This document shows, one piece after another, positions 3,725 through 45,790 of a stretch of DNA of 64,000 nt. Numbering within the stretch: the stretch's first letter is position 1; the number at the start of each line of letters is the position of its first letter. A program made the position numbers and the translations under genes. The notes under the pieces were generated by a model. The model searched no databases, was not told the DNA's origin, and saw only the letters and a list, made by a program, of their open reading frames with translations. Source of the DNA: Eledone cirrhosa (lineage: Eukaryota); NCBI GenBank assembly GCA_964016885.1, contig OZ024744.1, forward strand, positions 53,816,001 to 53,880,000. The letters are read 5' to 3'.

Positions 3725-3737
3725 CATATATATATAT

Positions 3738-4299: not shown

Positions 4300-4302
<3 letters not shown>
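3738..4302 (+). mobile_element. Non-coding TA-associated repeat (pLTR-like), copy 1 of 3
   Basis: Homologous to 46805-47376 and, inverted, to 45787-46251. Has an internal ~138-bp duplication (GTCTACGAC at 3888 and 4026) and a hammerhead-like fold at 4214-4289. Confidence 0.75.

Positions 4303-4500
<198 letters not shown>

Positions 4501-4835: not shown

Positions 4836-4926
<91 letters not shown>
4836..4926. repeat. (AAT)n, left edge of retrotransposon colony
   Basis: About 30 AAT units. Confidence 0.98.

Positions 4927-6430: not shown

Positions 6431-6431
<1 letters not shown>
4927..6431 (+). mobile_element. R4/Dong-clade RLE non-LTR retrotransposon, family A, 5'-truncated
   Basis: Open frame to stop at 6290: YKYLG, GGRGL, SAQDQ, CCHC CRVC..HIISMC, RHD, NRPDII..IDMSVP..KLSKYKDL (PD-D/ExK nuclease). 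3'UTR is followed by (AAT)n. Confidence 0.92.
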
Positions 6432-6468
<37 letters not shown>

Positions 6469-6470
<2 letters not shown>

Positions 6471-6813
6471 TGGATGTGGCCTGCCCGTTCGACACGAGAG
6501 TGCAAGAGAAGGAGAGGGAGAAAATTAACCGATACCAGGACCTAAAGTGGGAGGTAAAAAGGATTTGGAACTGCCATGAAGTCAAAGTGATCCCGATTGT
6601 CATAGGCGCACTGGGGACTATCTCCAAAAGTTTCCAGGGATGGTTAAAGAAAATCGGCCCCTTCACGCTTTTTGGAACGCTTCAAAAGGCATGCTTGCTT
6701 GGAACAGCAAGAACCCTCCGATACGTCCTGAATATCTGAGGCTGTAGGTAGTGGCTTGATATTCAATCCAACGGACTTTCCAGTTAAACAACATCAATGA
6801 CTGAGATTCAAGG
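6469..6813 (+). mobile_element. R4/Dong family B, 345-bp 3' fragment
   Basis: Near-identical to 26860-27204; ends GATTCAAGG + AATAAC(AAC)n(AAT)n. Confidence 0.93.
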
Positions 6814-6828
6814 AATAACAACAACAAC

Positions 6829-6866
<38 letters not shown>

Positions 6867-7117
6867 TTTCATTTATTGGCCACAAGGGCCGACATATAGG
6901 GGACAACACAATAGACAGGGACAGTGGGGGTTTACATAGAGATCGAGTAAGTATAAATAACAAAAAAACAAAATAACAATAAAAATACAACAATGAAAGT
7001 TCCCCAATAAGAGGGATCACCACCCAGGGTTGACTCAAGCACCCCACCAGTCCTGAGCCACCCGACGCTCCTAGGGCACCCGGGAAGGGCACCCCTCTCC
7101 TTCTCGAATTCACCAGC

Positions 7118-10100: not shown

Positions 10101-10538
10101 TTCTAAGATGCCATTCCAATCCCCTATTAACAGTAAAGGGCGAGACGTAAGCAGAAAGTTTTCCAGGCGCCTAAAGAAGTCCGGCCGACCGGCCCCAGTA
10201 GGGGCGTAGACGGCCACCAGTCTAAAGGCACCACCTTCGCTATTGCTCACGTCCAGGACCACCAACTTTCCGTCAGGATCCCGGAAGATTGACCTTACCT
10301 CGAGATCCAGACATTTCCTAAACAGCACAGCCACTCCACCTCCCATTCCCGGCCGACTAACAGATGCAAAGATCTGATAATCGTCGAAAATCGGCGCCAG
10401 TGCGCGTGTGTCGGAAATTCTGGTCTCGCTGATGGCAATTACATCCATTCCTAGTGACCTGAGGTCGTTGAGCAAGTGACCTTGCTTCCAGGGCGACCCC
10501 AGGCCACGAACATTTAAACTTCCTACTCTTATGGCCAT
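7118..10538 (-). pseudogene. Tx1-1 ORF2 (APE endonuclease + RT + CCHC), one frameshift
   Basis: GSLNVRG, YAP, GDWN, YSDH; PGLDG, RPITLLN, DQSKAFD, QGCPLS, YADD; CPRC..HALVQC. Single +1 shift in the C8 run at 9718-9725, no stops otherwise. Confidence 0.92.
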
Positions 10539-10567
10539 GCTGGCAGGATGAATGGGAGAGGAAAGAT

Positions 10568-12476
10568 TTACTTACCTTCCGGGGTCTTGTGAAGGTCGGG
10601 TGGTTCGACCTCCATGGTTTGTGGGGTTTCTTTTGGGAACCCCTTTAATAGTCTTGACGTGGGTTTTACGTTCGGGGTTCCCACATCCCGAGGAAAGCTC
10701 TTTCGAATTTCTTTGTATGAAGCGAGCGACATTCGCATCAGAAGCAAATTATCTGGTACGCGAAATGTGCTCGCTTCAAATGTTTCCCCGTCTTTTTCGA
10801 TGTTTGTGCTTCGTGCTACATGGGCCATCAATTCCTTGTTGGCCCTTCTGGCAAGCACGAAGTTTTTAATGTTTTGTTGCTCGGGTTTTATTTGTTCGTG
10901 TGATTGTGGTGGTGATAGCTTTGTTAGTGTTGTTTCTATTGTGTCTGCGTTTGTTTTGGGTGGGGTGTCTGTAGTTTCTGATGTTTGTGTGTCTATTGGT
11001 TCTTGTGTCTGTCTAGCTTGTTTGCGTTTGGGGGATTTTGGTGGTTGTGTTGGTGATGCTGCGGGGAAAATGTTTGTGTGGGTGGTGTGTGTATTTTCTT
11101 TTGTGGGGGTGTTTGTGCTTTGTGGATTTCTTTTTTTTTTGTGTTTTGTTTTTTGTATTTTGGGGGACTTTGGTTTTCCCTCATCTTCACTGCTGGAGGA
11201 TGAGGGGTCTGTGGCTGTGAGCGTGTTTGTGTCTGAGTGAGTGTTTATGTTCTTGTTCGTGTGTGTATTTTGGGGGGGGGGGAATGGGAGAGCTTTCCTC
11301 GTTTCCCCCCTGGGTGTGCAATTTTGGTGGTTCCATTGTTGACGGTGTTGCTGGTGGTCCTTGTCCCGGCGTCGCCAGCAGTGGAATCTTTCGACCCCTT
11401 GCGCTTTTCGGCAGTTGAGGGCAGAAGGCTCGCAAGTGTGTCGTTTCCCCACAAAGGAAACAATGCGGCGTTTTGCCCTCAGTCATTATATGCAACACCC
11501 TCCCGTTTTGGAGGCGGATGTGGTCCGGGATTGCTTTTACGTTTTCGGGTCTGATTTGGAGCAGTATCTCCAGATCAACCCCGGACCAGTCGTCCCTGGC
11601 AGTTCTCGTTGCCTCTACCGGGACTGTATCCGTTCCTTCCACGATTACGCAACCCAGGAGCCACCACATATCAAGTCCTGGTGGAATCCTGGGAATGCGC
11701 ACACGTGCTATTCGTTTTCCCATGTGGGAGGGGTACATTATGACCTTGCTGGTTTTGCAAGGGGTCATTGAATGCTTCACAGCGAGGGCTTCAGACTTGA
11801 ACAGCACCGAAACGGTGCCGTATTGCCTGCCCCTCTCTATGAAGTCTGTGTCCTCTCTGATGTATTTCAGTGCGGCTTCTATATCAGCTTGCGCGATTAT
11901 CGCTGCCCTCTTTGTCTCTACTGAGATGCATCTGAAATGCACCGTTCTTTTTTCCACTGCCTCAATGGCTTCTGCCGGGACAGTTAAGTTTGCCCAGGTC
12001 TGCTCTTGATTTATGATTTTCCAGGCCTGGGCCAACTTTTCCTCTCTGTTGGTTAAGTCGATGCTGTAGCATGGTCTCCTTTTAGCCGCTGCCACAGCAG
12101 CGAAGGTGTTCTTGTTGGTGTTGTCACTGTTGTTGTTATTGTTGGTGTTGCTGCTGCTATTGTTGTTGTTGTTCTCCCCTGTGTCGTGGTTACCCTCTGT
12201 GCTGTTGGCCTTGTTGGTGCTGTTGCTGTCGCTACTATTACTCTCTGTGCTGTTCGTTTTGTTGGTGCTCTCGCTATTACCACCTTCTGCGCTGTTCGGC
12301 TTGTTGGTGTTGGTGTTGTCGCTGTTACCACCTTCCGCGCCGCTCGGCCCGTTGGTGCTGGCACTGTCGCTGCTCACATTCGTGCTGGTGGCGCTCCTCG
12401 CCTCACCTCTCCTCTCAACGCTCAAGTCGCCGTTGCACGACAGCAGACCCGCCTCTAGGGGGCGTGGCTCCGCCAT
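10568..12476 (-). pseudogene. Tx1-1 ORF1 (gag-like zinc knuckle), one frameshift
   Basis: CFLCGETTHLRAFC; Ser/Asn-rich N-terminus; frame switch in the G12 run at 11271-11282; homologous to ORF1 at 19373-21466. Confidence 0.88.
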
Positions 12477-12713
12477 GTTTTTTTGAGAAAAAAATTATTA
12501 TTTTTTCCAAAATAAAGTTCAAATATTTGGGCCAAAAGGCCCAAATATTATGAGTTATTCCTTCACAGGATACAAATGAATGTCTTATAATGCTTCAGCG
12601 GTACAAAAAATAAACAATTCTCTACAATTAATCCTCAAAAAATTGCTTACTCACGGAGCTTCAAAAAACGTACATCCACTTTCGTCAATAATAATAATAA
12701 TAATAATAATAAT

Positions 12714-14671
12714 CTCCTCCACATAAACAACTTGTTACCGGACGAACAGAAAGGATGCCGAAAGAAATCCCGTGGTACAAAGGACCAGTTACTTATTGAT
12801 AAGATGGTAATGAGGAATTGCAGAAGGAGACACACTGGTCTTGCCATAGGATGGATAGACAAAAAAAAAGGCATTCGACATGGTACCTCATTCTTGGATA
12901 ACCGAATGCCTAGAGATCTTCAGGGTGGCAGATAACATCAGACAGTTGTTGGGCAAAAGTATGAAGTATGGGAAACAGAGTTAACATCTGGTGGAGAATC
13001 CTTGGGAAGCGTGAAGATCAAGAGAGGTATCTTCCAGGGAGATAGTTTGTCCCGTCTGTTGTTTCTCCTTGCCCTGATCCCCCTGACCATTGTACTGCGA
13101 AAAGTGAGAGCAGCATACAAGTTGTGAAAGGGAGAGCTTACCGTCAATCACCTCCTCTTCATGGACGATCTTAAGCTCTTCGGGAAGAGTGAGAAGGATT
13201 TGGATGTGCTTGTTGACACTGTCCGTATTATCAGCAATGATATATGTATGCAATTTGGTATTAGTAAGTGTGGAGTGCTAGTGAGGAAGAGGGCTAAATT
13301 GAGCAGAAGCAACGGAATCCAGGTACCAACAGGTGAGATGATAAAGGAAATTGACACTGAAGAATGATACAAATATTTAGGTGTTCTGGAGGCTGATGAC
13401 ATCAAGAACAAAAAAATGAAGGAATTGATAAGATCTGAATATATTCGGAGAGTAAGGAGCGTATTAAAGTCACATCTGAACAGTAGGAATGCCATAAGTG
13501 CAGTAAATTCCCGAGCTGTGTCTATTATTAGGTACAGTGCGGGAATTCTGAGATGGAATGTTGCTGAACAAAAAGAAATGGATAGGAAGACTAGGAAGCT
13601 ATTGACTATCTACAACATGTTCCACAAAAGGAGTAATGTCGATAGACTCTACTTAAGGAGATCTGAAGGTGGAAGAGGTCTTATCAGAAATAGAGGACTG
13701 TGTTGAGATGGAGAAAAACAGCCTACACAAATACGTGACTGATAGTAGGGAGCCAATGCTCAGAATTGTACTGAAGGAGAGGACAATGGACCAGGGGATG
13801 TCCAAGGAGGAAATAACAACAAGGAGAAAGAGCAACCTTCATGAAAAATCCCTTCATAGTGCCTTCTTTGAGAAAACAGAATTTAGAGATCCACAGACTT
13901 GGAACTGGTTGAAAAGAGGAGACCTTAAAAATGCTACAGAAGGAATGCTAATGGCTGCGCAAGAGCAGGCCCTCAAAACGAAGTGTCAGAAACACCATAT
14001 TTACAAGGAGGAGGCTAGCCCACTGTGTAGGATCTATGGAGAGAGAGGGGAGACTGTGGCTCACATTGTATCCGAATGTAAACACCTAGCCCAGATGGGC
14101 TATAAGGGCTGGAGACATGATGTGATGGACAGGGTGATCCACTGGCACCTATGCAAAGTAAGCAAATTACCATATTCTGAGTAGTGGTATGAGCATAAGC
14201 CAGAGTCGGTGATGGAAAACGATTAGGTGAAGGTGCTGTGGGATTTAGGATACAGACGGACAAGAACCTGGAACAAAATAGACCTGACCTAGTGGTTTGG
14301 GACAAGGAAAAAAGATCGTCCCTGATTGTGGATGTGGCCTGCTCATTCGACACGAAAGTGCAAGAGAAGGAGAGGGAGAAAATTAACCGATACCAGGACA
14401 TGAAGTGGGAGGTAAAAAGGATTTGGAACTGCCCTGAGGTCAAAGTGGTCCCGATTGTCATAGGCGCACTAGGTACTATCTCAAAGAGTTTCCAAGGATG
14501 GTTAAAGAAAATTGGTCCCGCCCCGCTTTTTGGAACACTTCAAAGGGCATGCTTGCTGGGAACAGCAAGAACCATCCGATACGTCCTGAATATCTGAGGT
14601 TGGAGGTAGTGGCTTGATATTAATTTCAACAAACTCTCCATTTAACTAACATAAATGACTGAGACTCAAAG
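12714..14671 (+). mobile_element. R4/Dong family B diverged copy, 5'-truncated, decayed
   Basis: EQKGCR, GIFQGD, MDDLKL, AQEQAL, NRPDLVV with several stops and frameshifts; AAT/AAC flanks. Confidence 0.92.
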
Positions 14672-14703
14672 AACAACAATAATAATAATAATAATAATAA
14701 TAA

Positions 14704-15576
14704 GCAAAAAATGATGAACAATTGCAAGAGCTATTATCCACTGTGAAGCAGTTCAGTGATGACATTAAAATGGAGTTTGGACTAGATAAATGCGCCAAAG
14801 CAACGTCCACCAGAGAAAAGTTGCTGAGAAGTTCAGACATTAATCTTGATCGGGGGAATGTGATAACAGAACTTGATCAAGAGGAAACTTACAAATATCT
14901 AGGTGTTTGTGAAGGAGACGGAATGAAGCACTCAACAATGAGGGAAAGGATAAGGAAGCAATGTTACCGCAAGGTAAGAGCAATATTAAGAACGGAATTG
15001 AATGCAAGGAATAGAATCGATGCCATAAACACGCTTGCCATACCAGTAGTAACCTACAGTTACATTGTCATCAACTGGTCAAGCACAGAGATCCGTAGCC
15101 TCGATACAAAAATTAGAAAATTCTTAACCATGCACAGAATGCATCACCATAAGGCAGATAAAGATAGAATATATCTGCCTTGGAAAGAAGGAGGACGTGG
15201 ATTAATCCAGTTAGATATTGCGTTGAAAACTGCAACAATTGGATTATCTACATATCTAAGGGAATCACATGATTGGATGATCAAACTCGTTTTGAAACAC
15301 GAAAGCATCAAAAGACCATATTCCATTACAAAAGATGCACAAAGATACAGTAATGGACTACAAATTTCAGAAGTCCTATTTACTGCTGAAATGGAAAACA
15401 GAAAAAGCAAAGCAGGTAAAAGTAACTGCAAAGAAAGAACTGCTACAGAAACTGGCTAAGAAATGGCAAGAAAAGCCTCTGTATGGAAAATACTCTGAAA
15501 GAGCTAATAATTCTGATGAGGTCACTGGTTGTAACTTGGTGATAACTCGTATGAACATAAAGCAAGATAAATGCAA
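14704..15576 (+). mobile_element. R4/Dong family A copy, 5'-truncated with internal deletion
   Basis: Matches 4927-5580, then jumps at ~15518 to the 3'UTR equivalent of 6374-6431. Confidence 0.92.
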
Positions 15577-15577
15577 C

Positions 15578-15578
<1 letters not shown>

Positions 15579-15655
<77 letters not shown>
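15579..15655. repeat. (AAT)n spacer
   Basis: About 25 units between tail-to-tail elements. Confidence 0.98.
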
Positions 15656-15657
<2 letters not shown>

Positions 15658-15917
15658 TTTCTTTATTAACCACAAGGGTTTACATAAAGTAGACATTAAG
15701 GACAGTGCAGGACAATGCAGGACGGTACAAATGGGCATTTCTGCGTGTAAAAAAACAAAAACAGAGGATGTAACAAAAATAACAATGAAAATAACAATGA
15801 AAAATTCCCCAATAGGGGGGAGACTTCGGAGGGACATTTGTGGAGAAAGCCCAGTAAAAGGCCACAATGACCCTGACCACCAAGGCAAGTGCCCTCTCCC
15901 AGTTTTCCACCTTTAGT

Positions 15918-18900
15918 TTACAGATATATACTCAGAGTCGGCCCATTCACTCGGGCCATTCTTGCTTCTCTCACCCATCTTTCAACAAAATGCTGGGAAG
16001 AGAGCACTTCCTTCTCTACTCTGATTTTCCTTTTCAAATGAAATTTGAAAAAGTCAATCAGAGCATCACCGAAGAGGTAAGTGCTCGTCTTCAGCCCTTT
16101 CAAACGTGTCCACCATACTATCTCTTTCGCCATGGCCACCAGACAGATAAAAACTGCCTGCCCTTCCCGGCTAAAGGAGGAGGGCGGGGCAATCCTCACG
16201 ATAGACTCAGATGATAGCTGGATCCGTCCTAAACGCGACAGCAGGTGTTCGACATAAACCCACAAGTCAGCAATTTTCGGACACTGGACGAGTGCGTGCA
16301 GGACGGTTTCGTCGCCCTGCGCGCATCTCGGACATGCCCGGCTGACGGCACCTCCATGCCTGTAGAGTTTATCCCGAACTGGAAAGGCTCCTCGGTAGCA
16401 CTGCCAGGCCAGAGATTTCTGGAAGTTGTCCATAGGCCCTGGCCCGAAAGTTCTTCCGAAGAGATTGGCTAGTTGATTTTCGTCGACGCCTAGAGTTTCC
16501 CCAAGTACGTCGTCGCTCTTCCCCTCCACTAATCCTCTATAGAACGCCGAGGTGGAGTTTCCACCGATCACATTGCCCGATTGGTCGAGGGCTGTGAGCG
16601 CCTGAAGACATTCCAGTCTCCAGGCGCTCCCTCTCGGTCTTCGCTTGACCCAGGACTGCAGCTCCGTCAAGGAAACGAGCTGGGGAAAAACGCGTCTAGC
16701 AAACGGCGACCACACCTGATCACCGTCGAGGAAGAGGTGGAGATGTCGTAGCCTGAGCGCGTGCCTGCGCATCATCAGCCACGGCATGCCCAGCCCTCCA
16801 CGTAGCGGGTGTTGACAACAGATGGACCGCCTGACCATCGGAGCACGTCCCTTCCACAAAAAGCGAAAGAGCAAACGCTCCAGCGCAGTCAGGCGAGGCT
16901 TAGGACAAGGTACGACGGTTAGGCGGTAGCAGATGACAGACGCGATGTACGCGTTAGCCACCTCCGCTCGACCTTTCAGGGATAGCTTCCTCTCCGCCCA
17001 TTTCTGGGTGAGAGAAGCCACCCTGCTCGTCACCTCGTCCCAGTTTTTGTCCGTCTGGAGGTCCGGACCGAACCAGACCCCTAGCAATTTAACCGGTCCG
17101 TCCGTCCAGCGCCCGACGACGCTGTTGGAGCGCATGGACCTGCCTCTCCAGGTGCCGAGCTGCAGGCTCACTGACTTTTCCTGGTTGATCATTGCTCCTG
17201 TCACCGCTTCGTATTCTCTTAGTGTAGTGCCGATCGCCTCGATGTGTTTGGCGTTCGACACCACTACGGTGACATCGTCCGCATATGCTGACACGGATCT
17301 TCCGCATCCTAGTTCGCGCGGGACTCCCCTCAACGTCTCCAGTTTGTGCAGTAATGGCTCGAGAGTCAATACGTACAAGAGGGACGAGAGGGGACATCCT
17401 TGGCGGACCGAGCGCATGATGTTGAACGGTTCCGACAGGTGACCGTTCACTCTCACCACAGAGCAGATGTCGCTGTGCATGGCAGCGATCCAGCCTCTGA
17501 AGACGGGCCCAAAGCCAGCCGCCCTCAGGACTGCCGCTAGGTAACGATGGTCGACCCTATCGAAAGCTTTCGACTGATCTAAATTGATCAAGGACCCACC
17601 CGTGCCAGGTTCCCTAGCTACCCTCTCTACGATGTATCGCATGAGGTGGAGGTTGTCGTGGATGGATCTGTCGGGAATGGCGCATGTCTGCGCCTCTCCC
17701 ACCAGACAACCGACGACAAGCGCCAACCTCTTTGCTAGCACCTTGGCCAAAATCTTAAACTCTGTGTTTAGCAGAGTTATGGGCCGGAAATTGTCTATGT
17801 TATCCCCCTTGTTCGGATCCTTTCTCAGCAGTGCCACCGCTCCTCGGCTCACAGAACTGGGAATTCTCCCGTTCTGTTGCCAGTTGCAGTAGACGTCCGC
17901 CAAGAGGCCTCCGAACAAGTCTGGCATCTGTACGTAAAGTTCATAGGGCAGACCATCCAAACCAGGCGATTTACCCCTTGTGCAGCCAGTCATTGCCTCT
18001 CTTACTTCAGCGGCTGTTATCGGCTTTTCGCAACACTTCGCCTCAGTGGCCGAGAGCCGCGGCAGTCCGTCGAGGTAGACACTAAAGTCCATCCCTCTAC
18101 CCGGCCCACCGCTGCCCCCGAACAGCTGAGCGAAGTGTCGCTGAAAAGCTTCACACATTTGCCCGGGATCGAGTAGCATGCGCCCGTCGTGGTCCACCAA
18201 AGACCGGATCGTGGCTTTGTTGCCACGACGCGCCTCCGCCACTCGGGCCCATTGAACGGCTTTCGTCCCCTCGTGTCTGAGAGCACGCACCCTTGCTCTG
18301 ACAACGCAGCCTTCGTGCTTTGCATTGAAGAATTGGTCAAGGGCCAATTTCGCCGCAAGCACGTCGGTCGCAATGCCTTTGCTAAGCGCCTCGTCTAATT
18401 TTCTAACTAGTTCTTCCTCTGCTCTATTTTTCTCTATTGCTAAAGCCTTACTAAATCTAATCGATTCTATTCTAATCGCTCTTTTCAGAGCAAACCACCA
18501 CTTGTTGTTGACGATGGCCCCCGTCAACGCCCGCTTAACTAGTTCGCTAATCCGGTCTCTGTAGGCCTTGCGCGCTGGTAAGGACGCGTTTAGCTTCCAG
18601 TAGCCGGGTCCTCGTCTATGAAGCCTATCTAAGTCAAGCACACAGATCACGAATTTGTGGTCCGTGTAGCTGACTATCTTGAATTGTGGACAGCCTATGC
18701 TAGACCTATCTATTTCCCTACAAAATACTCTATCTAGATATGATCTGGATGACCCTATGCGGTTTGTCCAAGTCCACATTGGCACATTCGGGAAATCCAA
18801 TCGGTACCTGTCAGACAGTTCAAAAAGCCTGAGCAGGTTGGTGAGGCTCTTGCACCCTCCACCCCTATCCGCTAATCCCACACAGTCCCAGCGTGCATCT

Positions 18901-19337
18901 AAGATCCCGTTCCAGTCGCCCACTAACAATAAAGAGCGGGACGTTCCAAGAAAGGTCTCCAGACGCCGGAAGAAATCAGGCCGCCCTGCTCCTGTCGGGG
19001 CATAGACGGCCACTAGCCTGAAAGCTTGCCCGTCTCCGCTGGTCACGTCCAGCACCACCAGCTTACCCTCTGGGTCCAGGAAGATGGCCCGTATGGCGAG
19101 ATCCAAACCTCTCCGAAAAAGCACAGCAACTCCTCCACCCGATCCAGGACGGCTGGGAGATGCGTACACATCGTAGCCGCCGAAGATCGGTGCGAAGGCC
19201 CGTGCTTCGGAGATTCTGGTCTCGCTGATGGCCACTACATCTATGTTTAGTGACCTGAGGTCGTTGAGCAGGTGACCCTGCTTCCATGACGACCCCAAGC
19301 CACGCGCATTTATGCTGCCTATTCTGAGTGAGGTCAT
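15918..19337 (-). CDS. Tx1-2 ORF2, 1139 aa APE-RT-CCHC
   Basis: GSINARG, ISETR, YAP, GDWN, YTDH; PGLDG, DQSKAFD, QGCPLS, YADD; CPRC..HALVQC; no stops. Confidence 0.96.
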   Translation of the reverse strand: MTSLRIGSINARGLGSSWKQGHLLNDLRSLNIDVVAISETRISEARAFAPIFGGYDVYASPSRPGSGGGVAVLFRRGLDLAIRAIFLDPEGKLVVLDVTSGDGQAFRLVAVYAPTGAGRPDFFRRLETFLGTSRSLLLVGDWNGILDARWDCVGLADRGGGCKSLTNLLRLFELSDRYRLDFPNVPMWTWTNRIGSSRSYLDRVFCREIDRSSIGCPQFKIVSYTDHKFVICVLDLDRLHRRGPGYWKLNASLPARKAYRDRISELVKRALTGAIVNNKWWFALKRAIRIESIRFSKALAIEKNRAEEELVRKLDEALSKGIATDVLAAKLALDQFFNAKHEGCVVRARVRALRHEGTKAVQWARVAEARRGNKATIRSLVDHDGRMLLDPGQMCEAFQRHFAQLFGGSGGPGRGMDFSVYLDGLPRLSATEAKCCEKPITAAEVREAMTGCTRGKSPGLDGLPYELYVQMPDLFGGLLADVYCNWQQNGRIPSSVSRGAVALLRKDPNKGDNIDNFRPITLLNTEFKILAKVLAKRLALVVGCLVGEAQTCAIPDRSIHDNLHLMRYIVERVAREPGTGGSLINLDQSKAFDRVDHRYLAAVLRAAGFGPVFRGWIAAMHSDICSVVRVNGHLSEPFNIMRSVRQGCPLSSLLYVLTLEPLLHKLETLRGVPRELGCGRSVSAYADDVTVVVSNAKHIEAIGTTLREYEAVTGAMINQEKSVSLQLGTWRGRSMRSNSVVGRWTDGPVKLLGVWFGPDLQTDKNWDEVTSRVASLTQKWAERKLSLKGRAEVANAYIASVICYRLTVVPCPKPRLTALERLLFRFLWKGRAPMVRRSICCQHPLRGGLGMPWLMMRRHALRLRHLHLFLDGDQVWSPFARRVFPQLVSLTELQSWVKRRPRGSAWRLECLQALTALDQSGNVIGGNSTSAFYRGLVEGKSDDVLGETLGVDENQLANLFGRTFGPGPMDNFQKSLAWQCYRGAFPVRDKLYRHGGAVSRACPRCAQGDETVLHALVQCPKIADLWVYVEHLLSRLGRIQLSSESIVRIAPPSSFSREGQAVFICLVAMAKEIVWWTRLKGLKTSTYLFGDALIDFFKFHLKRKIRVEKEVLSSQHFVERWVREARMARVNGPTLSIYL

Positions 19338-19372
19338 GTTTAAAATAGAGTGGAAAAGATGGGAAAGACCAC

Positions 19373-21466
19373 TTACCGTACTTTTGGTAGAGGAGGGATG
19401 GTTTTTACATCCCTTTTCACTTGATCGTCTGGTGAAGGGACCGTTGAATCGTCCCTTCGGCTGGTCGTCGGCTCTTCTAAGAGAATGTCTGAGTATACTC
19501 TTCGATTGATGGTTCCTCCTAGGTCCCTGAAATCACCAACTGCGTTGGGGAATTTCGTTTTAATGTTTGTGTATTGTTTCTGTGCTATTTTTAGCAGTCT
19601 TATGTTAGTTGGCGTTTTGATTGGTGCTGGTATTATGTAGTCCTGTTGTGAAATGTCTGTGTGTTCAATTATGTAAGTCATTAGTTTCTTGTTGTGTGTG
19701 TTTATTGCCGTGCATTTGTTTTTCTGGGGGTGGGGTGTGGTTCTGCTATTTTCTTGTCGTTGTTGCTGGGTGTGTGTGTTTTGTTGTTGTGTTTGCGATG
19801 TTGGTGCTTGTGGTGGTGGTGTTGAAGGTGTTGTTGGCGGTGGGGTTGTCGCCGGTGGTGATGGTGGTGCTGGTGTGGGTGGTGATGGTGTTGGTGGTGT
19901 TGCTGCTGTGGGTCTCTTTGCAGTAGACTTTACCCTTTTCTCATTTCTTTCCTCCCTTTTCAAAGGCGACGATGCGCTGCTTCTGCGTTTGTGCCTTCTT
20001 GCGACCTTTTGCCATCCCTCTCCCACCTCACACTCCATGTCTGATTCTGTAAGGTCGGGGAGGGGTACCAGCTCCACTCTTTCACTTGTTGTTGTTGGTG
20101 ATGTTTGCACTGGAGTCTCTGTTGCAGCTGCATTTGGTATTGCTGTTGTTGTTGTTAATATTTCCACTGCTGCTGCTGTCTTTGATTTCCGTGGAGTGGG
20201 TATGGGTGCCACGGACCTATCGTTCCTGGTTGCCGCTTGTCCTGTTGCTGGTAGCCGTGGAGCCGGATTCGGAAGGAGGGGGGTTTTCTCCTTTCTCAGG
20301 GTCTTCTCGTTGCAGAAGGCCCTGAGGTGAGTCTTCGATCCACAGCGAAAGCATTTCGGGCGTTTGCCCTCAACACTTATGGGCAGTTGAGTGCCGTTAT
20401 CGAAGTCTATCACATCCGGGATAGCTTCGATGCACTCCTGGTTGGTTTGGATTAGCATCTCAATGGAGGAGCCGACCCAATCTTCTCTTACTTTTTTCTG
20501 TACTTGCAGTACAGTTGTTTTGTCCTCGATTCCGACGAGGACAGACGCGGCCAGCCAAGAAGGGGTCATTCCGGGGGGGACGTGGGTCAGTTTGACCCTC
20601 ACAATTTTTTGCCCGCAGTAGGAGGGCACCAACACCATTTCCTCGCTCCTTAGGGTCACTACTGATTGGGCCTTTGCCTCCTGGGGTGTGGCAAAAAGTA
20701 CGTCTACGGTGGCGTATTTTTTGCCTCGGGTGATGTGCGTTTTCCTCTGCCACACAGACCCCAAGGCTTTTTGTATTTGGGCCTCTGTGGCTCTTTCCAC
20801 CCTACGGGATTTTGTACTTACTGTACGGTACGTGACCGTACAGTGCTCTTGGGTTTCGAAAAAATTTTTCGCTGCCTTGCAGATTGCTCGGTGTCCGTTC
20901 TTTGTCACCATCTTCTTCGCTTCCTCTAATTCCTCATTTGTTATGAGGATTGTTTCCAAGTTTTTCGCAATACCTGCAAATGAGATTGGTTTTTCTCTGC
21001 TGTTGTTGTTGTCGTCAGAGCTGCTGGTACTTTTGTTGCTGCAGGTACTACGACTACTGCCTCCGCCGCTGTTGCTGTGGTTGTTGTTGGTGTTGCTGCT
21101 GCTAATGCTGTTGTTGTTTATGCTGCTGGTGATGCTGTTGGGGCTGCTACTGTTGTTTTCATTGTCACTGTTGCTGTTGTTATTACGGCTGCTACTGCTA
21201 TTATTCCTGACGTCAGACGAATGAACTGGGTTTTCGTATTTCCCGCACACCTGTTTCGTCGCTGTCGTCGTCGTCGTGGAGAAACCTTGCACGCTTTGCA
21301 CGAGACTTTTCTTTTCTTTCGTCGCTTGCGAAAGAGAAGGGAGGGAGAGAGACACATTTAAAGAAGGGAGGGAGAGAGACAATATTCTCTCTGCTGTAGT
21401 GATGATTGAGGAAGAAGAAGACGGAATGAGTGGGAGTGAGGTATGAAATTTCTTTTTCGTAGCCAT
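19373..21466 (-). CDS. Tx1-2 ORF1, 697 aa zinc-knuckle nucleic-acid-binding protein
   Basis: CFRCGSKTHLRAFC; SFAGI and WQKVARR motifs; S/N and P/T low-complexity tracts; lies directly upstream of ORF2. Confidence 0.9.
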   Translation of the reverse strand: MATKKKFHTSLPLIPSSSSSIITTAERILSLSLPSLNVSLSLPSLSQATKEKKSLVQSVQGFSTTTTTATKQVCGKYENPVHSSDVRNNSSSSRNNNSNSDNENNSSSPNSITSSINNNSISSSNTNNNHSNSGGGSSRSTCSNKSTSSSDDNNNSREKPISFAGIAKNLETILITNEELEEAKKMVTKNGHRAICKAAKNFFETQEHCTVTYRTVSTKSRRVERATEAQIQKALGSVWQRKTHITRGKKYATVDVLFATPQEAKAQSVVTLRSEEMVLVPSYCGQKIVRVKLTHVPPGMTPSWLAASVLVGIEDKTTVLQVQKKVREDWVGSSIEMLIQTNQECIEAIPDVIDFDNGTQLPISVEGKRPKCFRCGSKTHLRAFCNEKTLRKEKTPLLPNPAPRLPATGQAATRNDRSVAPIPTPRKSKTAAAVEILTTTTAIPNAAATETPVQTSPTTTSERVELVPLPDLTESDMECEVGEGWQKVARRHKRRSSASSPLKREERNEKRVKSTAKRPTAATPPTPSPPTPAPPSPPATTPPPTTPSTPPPQAPTSQTQQQNTHTQQQRQENSRTTPHPQKNKCTAINTHNKKLMTYIIEHTDISQQDYIIPAPIKTPTNIRLLKIAQKQYTNIKTKFPNAVGDFRDLGGTINRRVYSDILLEEPTTSRRDDSTVPSPDDQVKRDVKTIPPLPKVR

Positions 21467-21705
21467 GTTGTTTTTTGTTTAAAATGAATATTGGGTACAA
21501 AACCCCAATAACTGGTTATTTAACCCCGAAGGGCCAAATAACGGACAGAAAGACCCCTCTCACGAGGAGGAGGGTGTCTTTATCAACAATTTGGTTCAAG
21601 TTTTAAACAATTTACAATTGTTTTAACGGTTAAAAATTACTATACCTTACAGAGCCGAGCCTCCGTCAACCATGGCATTCAATAATAATAATAATAATAA
21701 TAATA

Positions 21706-22027
21706 ACACGAGAGTGCAAGAGAAGGAGAGGGAGAAAATTAACCGATACCAGGACCTAAAGTGGGAGGTGAAAAGGATTTGGAACTGCCATGAAGTCAAA
21801 GTGATCCTGATTGTCATAGGCGCACTGGGGACTATCTCCAAAAGTTTCCAGGGATGGTTAAAGAAAATCGGCCCCTTCACGCTTTTTGGAACGCTTCAAA
21901 AGGCATGCTTGCTTGGAACAGCAAGAACCCTCCGATACGTCCTGAATATCTGAGGCTGCAGGTAGTGGCTTGATATTCAATCCAACGGACTTTCCAGTTA
22001 ACCAACATCAATGACTGAGATTCAAGG
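21706..22027 (+). mobile_element. R4/Dong family B, 3' fragment
   Basis: Near-identical to 26883-27204; AAT flanks. Confidence 0.93.
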
Positions 22028-22054
22028 AATAACAACAATAATAATAATAATAAT

Positions 22055-22637
22055 GATTTCTTTATTAACCACAAGGGTTTACATAAAGTAGACATTAAGC
22101 ACAGTGCAGGACAATGCAGGACGGTACAAATGGGCATTTCTGCGTGTAAAAAACAAAAACAGAGGATGTAACAAAAAATAACAATGAAAAATTCCCCAAT
22201 AGGAGGGAGACTTCGGAGGGACATTTGTGGAGAAAGCCCAGTAAAAAGCCACAATGACCCTGACCACCAAGGCAAGTGCCCTCTCCCAGTTTTCCACCTT
22301 TAATTTACAGATATATACTCAGAGTAGGCCCATTCACTCGGGCCATTCTTGCTTCTCTCACCCATCTTTCAACAAAATGCTGGGAAGAGAGCACTTCCCT
22401 CTCTACTCTGATTTTCCTTTTCAAATGAAATTTGAAAAAGTCAATCAGAGCATCACCGAAGAGGTAAGTGCTCGTCTTCAGCCCTTTCAAACGTGTCCAC
22501 CATACTATCTCTTTCGCCATGGCCACCAGACAGATAAAAACTGCCTGCCCTTCCCGGCTAAAGGAGGAGGGCGGGGCAATCCTCACGATGGACTCAGATG
22601 ATAGCCGGATCCGTCCTAAACACGACAGCAGGTGTTC

Positions 22638-22639
<2 letters not shown>
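22055..22639 (-). mobile_element. Tx1-2 3' fragment (5'-truncated independent insertion)
   Basis: Near-identical to 15656-16252; AAT repeats on both sides. Confidence 0.94.
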
Positions 22640-22688
<49 letters not shown>

Positions 22689-25600
22689 GGGAAGAAGGCG
22701 CACGAGGTGACGGAGGTCATGAAATCGCTCCCGTAAGTTTTGAATTTTTAACATATTTAAATCATTTGTGAAATAACAACTCTTAGTACAAATGCTACGT
22801 AAAGCACCCGGCTTGAGCCCCAAAAATTCGGACCCAAAATATATTGTTATAAGGCTCAAATATCCAAATATTCAACTTTGTATTGTACACTGTATATCCA
22901 AAAAAGAAAATGGCTATAAATGGAAGAAGAACCCCCCCCCCTCCTCTCCTCTGGCTACACTATATAGGACAGCCAAATTCACCAACACCAGAAACTAGAT
23001 ACACCACCCACCCCATCATCTGTGTACACTAAACACAACAGCCAGATAACGGCATTTTCACCCTCACCGCCACCGCTCACTACGGCCATCATTACCACCA
23101 CTATCCCATCACCGCCGCCACCACCCCTTGACTCCTTCACTACTGCCACCGCTACAGCACCATCACTACAGTAATACGGTCACATCACCGCCACCACTGC
23201 CTCGGTATCGACATCACCACCACCACTGTCTCAGTATCGCTACCGCCGCCAGTCTCCCACTCCTCCCTGCTGGCTGCTACTTCCACATTATAGAATTCCT
23301 ACTACTAACAAAGAGGAAGACATCAAAATATATAGATAGACTCAAAAGAAAAAAGAAAAAACAAACAACAAAACCAAAGCAGCACAGCAACAACAGCAAA
23401 AACGAGAAAAACAAACAGAGAAAAACAAAAACAAAAAAAGAAACCCCAAAAACGTAAAGAAAATAAGAATGAAGAGAGAAGCAGGCGGACGGACAGAGAA
23501 GAGGGGGGAAAAAGTAAAACTTAAAAAACAAAAACTAAGTCAGACATTCGAACACTACATTACAATGAAACTTATGCTTATTCATTTTTGGGGCCCTTTC
23601 TGCCTGTGTGTTTGTTTGTTTATGTGTGTTCGTATACAGCGTGGTGATAATGCCACACAAGGGCCAAGTGGGATGGCGGATCCACAGATGGATATGTAAC
23701 CATACATTCGCCAATCCTCGATAAGAGTGTTTAAATATCGAACATAAACAGTTCGAATAATGGTGAAATGGAGACTAGAATGTCATGTGACAGACTCTCA
23801 CCCAACAGGTGCCCCCTGGCTCAGCAGCAGGAACCTGACTGTCAACCAAATACTGCTGATGTTGGAGGAAGAAGAAGAAGGAAAGGGGCCAGAACCAACT
23901 GGACGAAAGAATTGAATAGAAATGTTATGCAATGCTAACTGAAAAGTAACCCCAAGGAGAGGGGCTACAGAAGACGGATGCATAACATCTGGAACGAGAT
24001 TGGTTTATTTAAATTAGATGAACAAAAATTGGAGTGGATAAGCGAGCTGGAGCTGGAGGAACTGAGCAGAGAGAATGGCTTGGAGATGGCGGGTGTAGTA
24101 TGCCAGACAAGCGAGCCAGTGGGAAATGAAGGTGAAGAGGTCCTGAGAACGGAGGAACCACCCGAAGCAGACAATGATCTGAATACTGAGATAAATAATA
24201 CCTGGAACAGAGATACGGCCACTGAGAAGATGAATGCTGACGGGCTAGGACAAGATTCGGTTGACATCCTAAATTTAGTGGTAGATGAATTGAACAATGA
24301 TAGTGGGAGACCTATGAACCTAAGATTTGTAGACAGGAAAAAGTTAAAAGAAACAACAGCTAAGGTAAACAAAGTCATCCCATACCTTGAGGCGAGGAGC
24401 CTTCACCAGTGCAACAATATCCTCAAAGCAACAGCAAATACGGTGAGGAAACTACTTGGTATAAAAGCGAGAGGAAACAACAGACAAGAAAGAGCAGAGC
24501 CGTGGTGGAAGAAGCGACTGAGTGGGCAAATCGGGGAAATGAGGAATGACATAGGAAAGCTTGAGTCACTACTGAATGGGACACTAAAAAACATAGGCAC
24601 TAAAAATAGACTGGAAATAAAATACAAAACTAGGAGTAAAAAGCTAAATATTATCATAGAGGAATTGAAGCAACGCATTGTAGCAAAGAGTGCAAAAATC
24701 AGGCGATACGAGAACAGAGTCAGTCAGTATAAACAGAACCGCATGTTCGACAACAACCAGAAGATGCTGTTTGGACAGCTTGAGGGGAAAGAAAGAGGCA
24801 ACGACTTGATCTCTGGGGCGGAACAAACTAAAACATTCTGGAGAGGAATATGGGAGCAGGATGTTAGACACAATGCCCAGGCAGGGTGGATTGAGACAGT
24901 ACAGAGGGAGATCGGTGAGCAGGCACAACAACAAACTGATTTGAGTATCACAGTTGAAACTCTTAAGGGGCAAGCCAAAAAACTAACCAACTGGAAATCA
25001 CCAGGCCCAGATGGTGTGCAGGGGTATTGGATTAAACATTTAACATCCCTCCACCCGAAGCTGACGGCCATGTTCAATGACTGCTTGGTGTCGGGTGAGG
25101 TGCCAGAGTGGTTGACAAAAGGTACCACAGTTCTGATAATGAAAGACCGAATCAAGGGTAATGATGTTACCAACTATAGACCTATCACATGTCTGTCCGT
25201 AATGTGGAAACTGTTGACGAGCATTGTGTCTGAGGAAATCTACCATCACCTCCACACAAACAACTTGTTACCGGACGAACAGAAAGGATGCCGAAAGAAG
25301 TCACGTGGTACAAAGGACCAGTTACTTATTGATAAGATGGTAATGGGGAATTGCAGGAGGAGACACACTGATCTTGCCATGGGATGGATAAACTACAGAA
25401 AGGCATTTGACATGGTGCCTCATTCCTGGATCACCAAAAGCCTGGAGATCTTCAGGGTGGCAGATAACATCAGACAGTTGCTAGGCAGGAGTATGGGGTC
25501 CTGGGAGACAGAGTTGACATCAACTGGAGTATCCTTGGGAAGCGTGAAGATCAAGAGAGGTATCTTCCAGGGAGATAGCCTGTCCCCTCTGTTGTTTGTC

Positions 25601-27204
25601 CTTGCCCTGATGCCCTTGACCATTATGCTGCGAAAAGTGAGAGCAGGATACAAGTTGGGAAGGGGAGAGCTTACCATCAATCACCTCCTCTTCATGGACG
25701 ATCTTAAGCTCTTCGGGAAAAGTGAGAAGGAGTTGGATGTGCTTGTTGACACTGTCCGTATTTTCAGCAGTGATATATGTATGCAGTTTGGTATTGGTAA
25801 ATGTGGAGTCATTGTGATGAAGAGGGGTAGGTTGAGCAGAAGTAACGGGATCCAGATACCAACAGGTGAGATGATAAAGGAAATTGACTCTGAGGAAGGA
25901 TACAAGTATTTGGGCGTTCTGGAGGCTGATGGCATAAAGAACAAAAAAATGAAGGAATTGTTAACAACTGAATACATTCGGAGAGTAAGGAGCGTACTGA
26001 AGTCACATCTGAACAGCAGAAATGCCATAAGCGCAGTAAATTCCCGAGCTGTGTCTATTATTAGGTACAGTGCGGGAATTCTGAGATGGAATGTTGCTGA
26101 ACAAAAAGAAATGGATAGGAAGACTAGGAAGCTATTGACTATCTACAACATGTTCCACAAGAGGAGTGATGTCGATAGACTCTACCTAAGGAGATCTGAG
26201 GGTGGAAGAGGTCTTATCAGCATAGAGGACTGTGTTCAGATGGAGAAAAACAACCTATACAAATACGTGACCTATAGTAAGGAGCCAATGCTCAGAACTG
26301 TACTGAAGGAGGGGACAGTAGGCCAGGGGATGTCCAAGGAGGAAATAACATCAAGGAGGAAAAGCAGCCTTAAGGGAAAATCCCTTCATAGTACCTTCTT
26401 TGAGAAAACTGAATTTAGAGATCCACAGACATGGAACTGGTTGAGAAGAGGAGACCTCAAAAAGGCTACAGAAGGAATGCTAATGGCTGCGCAGGAGCAG
26501 GCCCTCAAAACGAAGTGGTTGAAGCACCATATCTACAAGGAGAAGGCCAGCCCACTGTGCAGGATCTGTGGAGAGAGAGAGGAGACTGTGGCTCACATTG
26601 TGTCCGAGTGTAAACACCTAGCCCAGACCCACTATAAGGGCTGGAGACACGATGTGATGGGCAGGGTGATCCACTGGCACCTGTGCAAAGTAAACAATCT
26701 ACCACATTCTGAGAAATGGTATGAGCATAGGCCAGAGGCGGTGATGGAGAACAATCAGGTGAAGGTGCTGTGGGATTTTAGGATACAGACGGACAAAAAA
26801 CTGGAACACAATAGACCTGACCTGGTGGTTGTGGACAAAGAAAAAAGATCGTGCCTGATTGTGGATGTGGCCTGCCCGTTCGACACGAGAGTGCAAGAGA
26901 AGGAGAGGGAGAAAATTAACCGATACCAGGACCTAAAGTGGGAGGTGAAAAGGATTTGGAACTGCCATGAAGTCAAAGTGATCCCGATTGTCATAGGCGC
27001 ACTGGGGACTATCTCCAAAAGTTTCCAGGGATGGTTAAAGAAAATCGGCCCCTTCACGCTTTTTGGAACGCTTCAAAAGGCATGCTTGCTTGGAACAGCA
27101 AGAACCCCCCGATACGTCCTGAATATCTGAGGCTGCAGGTAGTGGCTTGATATTCAATCCAACGGACTTTCCAGTTAACCAACATCAATGACTGAGATTC
27201 AAGG
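22689..27204 (+). mobile_element. Full-length R4/Dong family B element with ~1-kb 5' leader
   Basis: Starts at the AAT boundary with the same 5' terminus as 32779; single long ORF; 3'UTR + AAC/AAT tail. Confidence 0.93.
23735..27130 (+). pseudogene. Family B RT-RLE polyprotein (1050 aa open from 23978; N-terminus has ATG>ATA and one stop)
   Basis: In-frame upstream WTKELNRNVMQC*LKSNPKERGYRRRMH (TAA 23936-8); PGPDG, YRPITCL, KAFD, GIFQGDSLS, FMDD, CRIC..HIVSEC, RHD, NRPD..VDVACP..KINRY. The sister copy has ATG at 34262. Confidence 0.9.
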
Positions 27205-27233
27205 AATAACAACAATAATAATAATAATAATAA

Positions 27234-29609
27234 TAAAACATTCTGGAGAGGAATATGGGAGCAGGATGTTAGACATAATGTCCAGGCAGGGTGGATTGAG
27301 ACAGTACAGAGGGAGATCGGTGAGCAGGCACACCAACAAACTGATTTGAGTATCACAGTTGAAACTCTTAAGGGGCAGGCCAAAAAACTAACCAACTGGA
27401 AATCACCAGGCCCAGATGGTGTGCAGGGGCATTGGATTAAAAATTTAACATCCCTCCACCCGAAGCTGACGGCCATGTTCAATGACTGCTTGGTGTCGGG
27501 TGAGGTGCCAGAGTGGTTGACAAAAGGTACCACAGTTCTGATAATGAAAGACCGAATCAAGGGTAATGATGCTACCAACTATAGACCTATCACATGTCTG
27601 TCCGTAATGTGGAAACTGTTGACGAGCATTGTGTCTGAGGAAATCTACCATCACCTCCACACAAACAACTTGTTACCGGACGAACAGAAAGGATGCCGAA
27701 AGAAGTCACGTGGTACAAAGGACCAGTTACTTATTGATAAGATGGTAATGGGGAATTGCAGGAGGAGACACACTGATCTTGCCATGGGATGGATAGACTA
27801 CAGAAAGGCATTTGACATGGTGCCTCATTCTTGGATCACCAAAAGCCTGGAGATCTTCAGGGTGGCAGATAACATCAGACAGTTGCTGGGCAGGAGTATG
27901 GGGTACTGGGAGACAGAGTTGACATCAACTGGAGTATCCTTGGGAAGCGTGAAGATCAAGAGAGGTATCTTCCAGGGAGATAGCCTGTCCCCTCTTTTGT
28001 TTGTCCTTGCCCTGATGCCCTTGACCATTATGCTGCGAAAAGTGAGAGCAAGATACAAGTTGGGAAAGGGAGAGCTTACCATCAATCACCTCCTCTTCAT
28101 GGACGATCTTAAGCTCTTCGGGAAAAGTGAGAAGGAGTTGGATGTGCTTGTTGACACTGTCCGTATTTTCAGCAGTGATATATGTATGCAGTTTGGTATT
28201 AGTAAGTGTGGAGTCATTGTGATGAGGAGGGGTAGGTTGAGCAGAAGTAACGGGATCCAGATACCAACAGGTGAGATGATAAAGGAAATTGACTCTGAGG
28301 AAGGATAAAAGTATTTGGGCGTTCTGGAGGCTGATGGCATAAAGAACAAAAAAATGAAGGAATTGTTAAGAACTGAATACATTCGGAGAGTAAGGAGCGT
28401 ATTGAAGTCACATCTGAACAGCAGAAATGCCATAAGCGCAGTAAATTCCCGAGCTGTGTCTATTATTAGGTACAGTGCGGGAATTCTGAGATGGAATGTT
28501 GCTGAACAAAAAGAAATGGATAGGAAGACTAGGAAGCAATTGACTATCTACAACATGTTCCACAAGAGGAGTGATGTCGATAGACTCTACCTAAGGAGAT
28601 CTGAGGGTGGAAGAGGTCTTATCAGCATAGAGGACTGTGTTCAGATGGAGAAAAACATCCTATACAAATACGTGACCTATAGTAAGGAGCCAATGCTCAG
28701 AACTGTACTGAAGGAGGGGACAGTAGGCCAGGGGATGTCCAAGGAGGAAATAACATCAAGGAGGAAGAGCAGCCTTAATGGAAAATCCCTTCATAGTACC
28801 TTCGTTGAAAAAACTGAATTTAGAGATCCACAGACATGGAACAGGTTGAGAAGAGGAGACCTCAAAAAGGCTACAGAAGGAATGTTAATGGCTGCGCAGG
28901 AGCAGGCCCTCAAAACGAAGTGGTTGAAGCACCATATTTACAAGGAGGAGGCTAGCCCACTGTGCAGGATCTGTGGAGAGAGAGAGGAGACTGTGGCTCA
29001 CATCGTGTCCGAGTGTAAACACATAGCCCAGAACCACTATAAGGGCTGGAGACACGATGTGATGGGCAGGGTGATCCACTGGCAACTGTGCAAAGTAAAC
29101 AATTTACCACATTCTGAGAAATGGTATGAGCATAGGCCAGAGGCGGTGATGGAGAACAATCAGGTGAAGGTGCTGTGGGATTTTAGGATACAGACGGACA
29201 AAAAACTGGAACACAATAGACCTGACCTGGTGGTTGTGGACAAAGAAAAAAGATCGTGTCTGATTGTGGATATGGCCTGCCCTTTCGACACGAGAGTGCA
29301 AGAGAAGGAGAGGGAGAAAATTAACCGATACTAGGACCTAAAATGGGAGGTGAAAAGGATTTGGAACTGCCATGAAGTCAAAGTGATCCCGATTGTCATA
29401 GGCGCACTGGGGACTATCTCCAAAAGTTTCCAGGGATGGTTAAAGAAAATCGGCCCCTTCACGCTTTTTGGAACGCTTCAAAAGGCATGCTTGCTGGGAA
29501 CAGCAAGAACCCTCCGATACGTCCTGAATATCTGAGGCTGCAGGTAGTGGCTTGATATTCATTCCAACGGACTTTCCAGTTAACCAACATCAATGACTGA
29601 GATTCAAGG
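27234..29609 (+). mobile_element. R4/Dong family B, 5'-truncated, two premature stops
   Basis: Near-identical to 24829-27204; stops at 28306-28308 and 29332-29334. Confidence 0.94.
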
Positions 29610-29635
29610 AATAATAACAATAATAATAATAATAA

Positions 29636-32600: not shown

Positions 32601-32686
32601 CTGAATATCTGAGGCTGCAGGTAGTGGCTTGATATTCATTCCAACGGACTTTCCAGTTAACTAACATCAATGACTGAGACTCAAGG
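29636..32686 (+). mobile_element. R4/Dong family B, 5'-truncated, frameshifted, mosaic
   Basis: Homologous to 24150-27204 with stops and frameshifts; AAT/AAC flanks. Confidence 0.94.
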
Positions 32687-32704
32687 AATAACAACAACAA
32701 CAAC

Positions 32705-32778
<74 letters not shown>
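32687..32778. repeat. (AAC)n(AAT)n spacer
   Basis: Direct reading. Confidence 0.97.

Positions 32779-32779
<1 letters not shown>

Positions 32780-45745: not shown

Positions 45746-45790
<45 letters not shown>
45745..45790. repeat. (TA)n
   Basis: Direct reading. Confidence 0.97.

Follow-up and report, generated by a model that had tools for sequence, protein, structure and literature searches.

Within the 64,000 nucleotides (nt) of Eledone cirrhosa DNA analysed here (contig OZ024744.1, positions 53,816,001-53,880,000; this whole stretch is called the window, and all coordinates are relative to it) lies a full-length retrotransposon without long terminal repeats (non-LTR) of the Tx1/L1 group, element B, whose open reading frames (ORFs) are intact and whose two ends both abut an (ATT)n microsatellite. 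We propose that B belongs to octopod families of Tx1-type long interspersed nuclear elements (LINEs) that insert by target-primed reverse transcription (TPRT) into (ATT)n/(AAT)n repeats, with ATT on the sense strand, and on the sequence evidence we give this reading a probability of roughly three in four. The parts of B are these, in nt, base pairs (bp) or amino acids (aa):

15656..21680, minus strand: element B, ORF-intact and full-length, 6025 bp
21467..21680, minus strand: 5' untranslated region (UTR), 214 nt, strongly structured, starting GAA right after (ATT)8
19373..21466, minus strand: ORF1, 697 aa, with a low-complexity N-terminus, an RRM-like core (about residues 200-365), a CCHC knuckle and a Pro/Thr-rich tail
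20312..20353, minus strand: the single ORF1 knuckle CX2CX4HX4C, residues 372-385
15918..19337, minus strand: ORF2, 1139 aa, with an apurinic/apyrimidinic-type (APE) endonuclease (EN) at residues 1-~236, a reverse transcriptase (RT) and a C-terminal CCHC
17274..17285, minus strand: YADD motif of the RT, residues 685-688
16281..16334, minus strand: C-terminal CX2CX8HX4C of ORF2, residues 1002-1019
15656..15917, minus strand: 3'UTR, 262 nt, with a terminal stem-loop, AATAAA and GAAATC, and without poly(A)
15579..15655, plus strand: (AAT)n tract of 77 bp, the 3' flank of B, at the same time the tail of a copy from Dong-like family 2
21681..21706, plus strand: (AAT)n tract of 26 bp, the 5' flank of B

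This anatomy supports B being an ORF-intact Tx1-type LINE. Pfam recognises Exo_endo_phos, RVT_1 and zf-RVT in ORF2, each above its cut-off, all of the APE residues are present (N10, E39, Y112, D141, N143, D202, D226 and H227), and the succession of APE endonuclease, RT and C-terminal CCHC is the ORF2 layout of the L1 group (L1/Tx1). The separate upstream ORF1 of RNA-binding type that is expected of this group is also there, 35 nt ahead of ORF2, with its CCHC knuckle and RRM-like model. A Pfam search with ORF1 gave no match, and neither did a homologue search with its residues 160-400 among 1195 candidates of 383-1220 aa; the structure model of its core (predicted local distance difference test, pLDDT, 60) matched RRM domains with a middling best Z of 7.8, and its Atlas neighbours were CCHC and ZCCHC3-RBD clusters (0.90-0.94). 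Judged by that model and by its knuckle, ORF1 is an RRM plus CCHC protein. The complete 5'UTR, 697-aa ORF1 and 1139-aa ORF2 with catalytic motifs that a preliminary description of this DNA had named are all borne out by the sequence and, for ORF2, by Pfam.

Two further insertions end in the same way:

6865..12686, minus strand: element A, a full-length member of a second family, 76% identical to B in nt, with both ORFs broken
6829..6864 and 12687..12713: (AAT)n flanks of A
22055..22638, minus strand: element C, a 584-bp 5'-truncated copy of B's family with short microhomology at its 5' junction
22037..22054 and 22639..22688: (AAT)n flanks of C

The string GAAATC|ATTATT occurs exactly three times, at 6865, 15656 and 22055, and beyond each occurrence there is only (ATT)n and no run of A, just as the preliminary description had it (no poly(A), and one phase in three copies). 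A search with this 12-mer allowing one mismatch is weak taken alone, as 8 of 100 shuffles reach three matches; the real three are exact. At the opposite end the junctions read ATT|GAA in B, ATT|GAC in A (12686) and ATT|CGA in C (22638), so that both full-length copies do start ATT|GA as had been claimed, and every 5' junction falls after TT, at a TpA step, to which C adds its microhomology. Thus (ATT)n adjoins all six junctions of three insertions from two families, in one register. The same description had staked its case on ATT at the 5' end of the copies, and (ATT)8-16 stands there in all three at this locus. Because C is 5'-truncated and nevertheless preceded by (ATT)16, the repeat appears to be the target, and not the element's own end or tail. 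Target-site duplications are unmeasurable within a perfect repeat.

All three insertions are antisense guests in an array of other retroelements, a context that the preliminary description had missed:

4836..34575, plus strand: host array of ~30 kb, made of nine Dong/R4-like elements of two families plus the three antisense Tx1 insertions
about 4927, 6470, 12714, 14704, 21707, 22689, 27237, 29636 and 32779, plus strand: starts of the Dong-like elements

With the Tx1 insertions removed, (AAT)n tracts make up 504 of the 15,512 bp of this array (3.2%), and the chance of three insertions all landing in tracts would be 3.4e-5, or 1.2e-6 on a whole-window basis, both figures being rough and from a single locus. 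Every copy with its ends kept (3/3, all at this one locus) is flanked by (ATT)n on both sides; Kojima's working rule for a Tx1 target preference is the same flank in >20% of copies. For flanks at other loci, two scans of a bacterial/archaeal genome collection for host-contaminated contigs returned 9 and 563 pattern matches, with no relative confirmed among them.

These counts presuppose separate events, and the three insertions do look independent: they differ in 5' end, in tract length and in Dong neighbour (family 1, 2 and 1). Assemblies are prone to fail at repeat tracts, A has one break per ORF, each in a homopolymer run (ORF1, 11272-11282; ORF2, 9718-9725) as long-read errors would be, and B and C are 98.5% alike, all of which one would expect if the insertions were non-independent through local duplication or gene conversion, or if the array were an artefact of mis-joins at AAT runs. 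However, identity between A and B is just 76%; C is truncated at a point of its own, with its own microhomology and other neighbours than B; and the Dong copies, 0.6-11% apart, begin at different 5' ends, so that we regard such an origin as very improbable. The comparison of C with B (575 of 584 positions equal, 9 mismatches plus 12 gap columns) upholds the near-identical truncated copy of the preliminary description, with its end at 22638 and not 22639; taking C for a segmental duplicate of B's end was rejected because the flanks differ. The three Tx1 copies of that description were likewise all found, with the amendment that 6865-12686 is a different family (as a copy of B's family it was rejected at 76% nt identity and a synonymous divergence, dS, of 0.7-1.0) and that a fourth, decayed relic exists:

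48037..49458, plus strand: decayed internal fragment of the Tx1 lineage, 65-78% nt identity, both ends lost, with internal deletions

This relic points to older activity of the same Tx1 lineage.

A second explanation would make the Dong elements themselves the target, through their 3' tail or through the chromatin or transcription setting of the array, with the (ATT)n flanks secondary. All three Tx1 insertions do follow immediately on a Dong 3' end, in antisense; the window holds three short (12-14 bp) tracts outside Dong spacers, none of which contains a Tx1 element; and Tx1 elements that target transposons have precedents in Xenopus Tx1, which inserts into Tx1D, and in crocodilian Tx1-Mar, which inserts into Mariner-N4 (PMC4494074; this and the other articles cited here by PMC number were available to us in part, and what we draw from them is limited to those parts). 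Against this, the Dong ends next to the insertions come from two families that differ in 3' sequence, and they lie at differing distances (36, 75-77 and 18 nt), so that the repeat alone is common to them; tracts outside the spacers are scarce and short; and of the 220 possible arrangements of nine Dong and three Tx1 elements, 120, or about half, keep every two Tx1 elements apart. We therefore consider a Dong target unlikely, and take (ATT)n targeting as such to be probable, at somewhat above the figure given for our reading as a whole. Of the specificity first claimed for these elements, the preference for (ATT)n thus stands as the best reading of six junctions in two families, with the reservation that these lie in one Dong array, where a preference for Dong spacers is possible.

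As for the array, its plus-strand elements look Dong/R4-like by their motifs: a single ORF with RT (RVT_1 in Pfam), CCHC in the translation, RHD and PD...D...K motifs as of the C-terminal PD-D/ExK endonuclease, and (AAT)n at both ends in keeping with a (TAA)n target. The two families are ~36% aa identical over their shared part, and the divergence of 0.6-11% is that among family-1 copies. The repeat (TAA)n serves as the Dong target in the majority of insects, molluscs and cnidarians (PMC7998251), R4-Dong is among molluscs almost confined to cephalopods (PMC10294476), and Octopus vulgaris carries 1129 near-full-length Dong-R4 insertions of recently active type (PMC13282606), as far as the accessible parts of these articles go. 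The final copy (32779-34575) consists of the 5' part alone. The longest begins with a 5' leader of ~1 kb that includes low-complexity segments (22689-23977); its ORF shows an apparent start near 23740 and, compared with the copy at 34290-34545, a break near 23950. Older Dong-related RT fragments lie outside the array, on both strands, at 52387-54346 and 58510-59630.

The endonuclease bears on whether the insertions reflect a true target or a loose preference. Its hairpin loop lies at:

18732..18773, minus strand: EN beta-hairpin loop, T189-D202, TWTNRIGSSRSYLD

The EN hairpin loop steers target choice, which the titles of the matched PDB entries echo. The model of B's endonuclease (19-row alignment, pLDDT 90) had human L1-EN as its best match (Z 28.4, root-mean-square deviation 2.4 over 228 residues), and the loop aligns to human L1 without a gap and at the same length, being 2 residues shorter than in the Tx1-type graft of PDB 2v0r. 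From W188 to Y200 A and B are identical, although their whole endonucleases are 73% identical, and across the sister clade described below these loops vary widely. A loop of L1 length on a fold closest to L1-EN is what might be expected if the elements were only loosely drawn, in the manner of L1, to AT-rich TpA sites, acquired their (ATT)n tail by RT slippage, and clustered because they survive in a gene-free array. In the same vein, the tracts around Tx1 sum to 21-33 units as against 5-24 in most Dong-Dong spacers, as tail synthesis could give, and ATT is missing beside the relic that lies outside the array. Yet a self-made tail fails to explain the (ATT)8-16 on the 5' side of all three copies, truncated C included, and the non-tract 96.8% of the array's non-Tx1 DNA received none of the three insertions; this explanation, too, seems quite improbable to us.

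The placement of B rests on its ORF2. Argonauta hians supplies the nearest named proteins (68% and 59%), followed by Octopus bimaculoides (58%, short) and Acanthosepion pharaonis (46% and 38%), a set that points to an octopod as the most likely host. No protein labelled Kibi, Koshi, Keno, Mutsu or Dewa came up among the matches. With the same program, in different databases, Xenopus Tx1 scored 316 bits (29% identity) vs 181 for human L1 ORF2p, and many Tx1-like proteins outrank L1 among the matches. Two RT trees were built, one with FastTree on 164 rows (267 matched, of which 235 covered at least 400 RT residues; these were thinned at 60% identity, sparing the named rows) and one with a quick IQ-TREE run (LG+G4) on 50 hand-picked rows; both are midpoint-rooted without an L1 outgroup, have weak deep support and hold no rows labelled Kibi, Koshi, Keno or Mutsu. 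In both, A, B, Argonauta and unnamed close matches (6 rows) form a starred clade, the sister of which is another starred clade, in which most of the ~1150-aa proteins are unnamed and which includes those of cuttlefish (Acanthosepion), and the two stand well apart from the clade of Xenopus Tx1 and fish. This would place B in a lineage of Tx1-type LINEs from cephalopods (coleoids) that is distant from Xenopus Tx1, Tx1 membership itself being likely if not settled, and it suggests, short of showing it, that microsatellite targeting arose here independently of the vertebrate families. Six close relatives (P0268-P0273, 68-83%) sit on 1.4-3.9 kb contigs, one of them under a bacterial genome-bin name; these contigs are probably host DNA carried into those assemblies.

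The RNA of B has these features:

21515..21542, minus strand: perfect hairpin of 12 bp around a loop of 4 nt, its end ~48 nt upstream of the ATG of B's ORF1
15668..15680, minus strand: 3' stem-loop with loop CUUGU, whose stem covaries with A (two double-sided changes)
15662..15667, minus strand: AATAAA, 6-7 nt before each 3' end

The 5'UTRs of B and A fold better than all of 200 shuffles (z -4.15 and -4.34). Element A shares the 12-bp hairpin (12522-12549) at nearly the same offset, with three double-sided and two one-sided changes; a second, weaker hairpin follows it, and otherwise the two 5'UTRs barely align. The shared hairpin may have a part in translation or in the promoter. A sigma-70 scan re-found these 5'UTR hairpins and is otherwise irrelevant to a eukaryote. 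An Rfam scan of 4500-35000 gave three matches at chance level, far below gathering scores, and a home-made descriptor for ribozymes like that of hepatitis delta virus, run without a positive control, had no match in four regions (A, B and two Dong 5' ends).

From these elements we infer a route that runs from a 5'UTR promoter to second-strand joining. The 5'UTR would drive transcription, and cleavage and polyadenylation would take place within the downstream repeat, giving an RNA that ends in ...GAAAUC(AUU)n(A)m; poly(A) cleavage normally occurs 10-30 nt after AAUAAA, and as this signal lies only 6-7 nt inside the element, cleavage would fall in the flanking repeat. ORF2p would then bind the 3' stem-loop, and its APE domain would nick the (AAT)n strand, since by the chemistry of TPRT the priming strand must read (AAT)n into the element's 3' end. 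The freed 3' end could pair with the AUU run of the RNA and prime cDNA synthesis there, which would explain both why poly(A) is never copied and why the register is kept in three of three copies. The (ATT)n strand would be opened at TpA and joined after TT, with microhomology helping in truncated copies. Because repeats would be left on both sides of each insertion, Tx1 and the oppositely oriented Dong elements could renew each other's target and so build mixed arrays. That a co-transcribed target can aid integration has been noted for other elements in the accessible part of PMC4494074.

Several observations weigh against the reading proposed here, or against parts of it. First, all three insertions lie within one Dong array at one locus, and the window has 15 stretches of (AAT)n/(ATT)n at least 12 bp long, 12 of which fall within 4836-32778 as Dong spacers; as every array tract is also a spacer, a Dong-linked preference is inseparable from one for the repeat. 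The relic at 48037-49458 has no adjoining ATT tract, which is uninformative given that both its ends are lost. Second, the loop sequence differs in four other octopod-group proteins, so that the target need not be clade-wide. Third, if the RNA pairs with the primer the nick cannot be positioned from the 3' junction, which we rejected as a nick marker for this reason. Finally, the covariation of the 5'UTR hairpin comes from two sequences and is reached by 63 of 500 shuffles, although slid controls pair at only 21-58%.

A last point of this kind concerns activity. Element B has a private residue at 11 of the 247 columns that are invariant in at least five relatives; one of these is an artefact of the alignment at the start, and the others (residues 9, 54, 279, 582, 621, 664, 736, 985, 1064 and 1109) are each one base away from the shared residue. 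The corresponding counts are 2/239 for A and 2/199 for the relative P0003 (Fisher p 0.0045, B vs both, with all 11 counted); such counts also grow with family distance, reaching 12-46 in distant rows of the sister clade. Between B and C, eight of the nine mismatches can be polarised with A, five being B's own and three C's. The B-private divergence of 5/584 = 0.9% would correspond to ~2-3 million years at 0.0036 per million years, the rate given in the available part of PMC13282606, an estimate made from few events that sequencing error would inflate. Between A and B, the ratio of nonsynonymous to synonymous divergence (dN/dS) is 0.17 in the endonuclease (270 codons) and 0.22 in the rest of ORF2 (867 codons) at dS 0.7-1.0, which implies that both families have long been under purifying selection; no information can be drawn from the ratio of C vs B (0.48, on 5 changes) or from that of the ORF1 core, which is saturated.

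The family thus appears to have been mobile within the last few million years. Copy B is ORF-intact, not pristine; neutral mutations seem to have begun, it is probably not the best candidate for present activity, and we find such activity doubtful. Element A, if its homopolymer breaks are assembly errors, may be the younger and better-preserved of the two. That B had initially been put forward as a candidate active element is accordingly overstated: its ORFs are open, its catalytic residues kept and its family young, but it carries about ten private changes and ~0.9% private divergence. Its intactness is not in itself surprising, since young near-full-length Tx1 families are known in octopus, the accessible text of PMC13282606 listing for O. 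vulgaris 80 L1-Tx1 consensus families, of which 13 are recently active and have 421 near-full-length insertions. The family of B, or a close relative, is probably among these. The main text of that article, as available, reports no target specificity, and the words "target" and "microsatellite" have no match in its supplement.

Elsewhere in the window, broken Helitron Rep/helicase ORFs occupy 38140-41498 (Pfam Helitron_like_N, E 1.5e-51), and a 48-bp minisatellite with an open Ser/Thr-rich frame spans 61435-63601 (44.5 copies, 90% matches). A near-perfect palindrome of 494 bp (55379-55872, 97% self reverse-complement) is possibly a miniature inverted-repeat transposable element or an assembly fold-back. 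An inverted repeat pair (96%) at 45787-46251 and 46914-47376 contains tandem units of 141-142 bp and has a related copy at 3735-4455.

If targeting of this kind held genome-wide, an A/T-only microsatellite would be added to the targets of Tx1 elements, and molluscs would join the hosts in which Tx1-type elements target microsatellites, with a lineage separate from that of vertebrates. This would be a clean case of one repeat reached from opposite strands by two endonucleases of unrelated kinds, an APE and a restriction-like one, and would help to explain retrotransposon hotspots in octopus genomes. The family would offer a test case for whether specificity comes from the hairpin loop or from RNA-DNA pairing, its loop being equal in length to that of the weakly specific human L1. 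As a tool for site-specific integration its value would be modest, (ATT)n being multicopy and activity doubtful. A wider scenario can be drawn, in which an old, cephalopod-restricted Tx1/L1 lineage gained microsatellite targeting independently of Kibi and Koshi, by an L1-length loop together with AUU pairing, converged with Dong on the opposite strand, built self-renewing antiparallel arrays that shape octopus genomes, and has many sister families whose widely differing loops form a natural panel of further target specificities for testing APE target choice; taken whole, this is speculative, and we would sooner doubt it than rely on it.

Whether the (ATT)n target is new depends on what has been catalogued. 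Literature searches, beyond whose reach lay most subscription papers, Repbase Reports, Repbase and Dfam, turned up no paper on an ATT-specific Tx1 element. None is named in the accessible parts of PMC4640811, PMC3747384, PMC5753468, PMC8967140 and PMC3774820, and the text of PMC4494074, as available, has no ATT target, which the target labels of its Fig. 3 and its supplements may hold. That the preliminary description knew of no described ATT-specific Tx1 family from this lineage agrees with the literature searched, with the proviso that Repbase or Dfam may contain one; on balance we lean towards (ATT)n specificity being undescribed for Tx1.

Among known systems, human LINE-1 resembles B in the fold of its endonuclease, in the length of the hairpin loop, in junctions at a TpA step and in an AAUAAA near the end on the 3' side. 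Its ORF1 is of another kind, and its priming takes place on T-rich DNA by way of the poly(A) tail; B copies no poly(A), and (AAT)n would be its priming strand. Xenopus Tx1 (YTX2, P0096) shares the APE-RT layout and the match of 316 bits, but targets the transposon Tx1D, has an EN hairpin loop 2 residues longer and falls in a distant clade; the ORF2 of the named Xenopus and fish Tx1-like elements is ~1300 aa vs 1139 aa in B. Dong uses the same microsatellite and occupies the same array, yet does so with an unrelated, restriction-like endonuclease, a single ORF and the opposite orientation in the repeat. The L1-Tx1 families of Octopus (Bonar et al. 2026, PMC13282606) are young and near-full-length like B, and have no reported target specificity in the accessible parts of that work. 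The closest parallels are the microsatellite-specific Tx1 families, namely Kibi in (TC)n, Koshi in (TTC)n and the crocodilian elements in (TTCC)n/(TTTC)n, as given in the available text of PMC4494074. Like B, these are two-ORF, APE-type LINEs of the Tx1 group that insert into a microsatellite in a fixed orientation; unlike them, B has a pure A/T target and a mollusc as its host. With flanks of (ATT)n, and not (TC)n or (TTC)n, B is by its target neither Kibi nor Koshi, and it is best filed as an element that works like them, with a new target in a cephalopod lineage.

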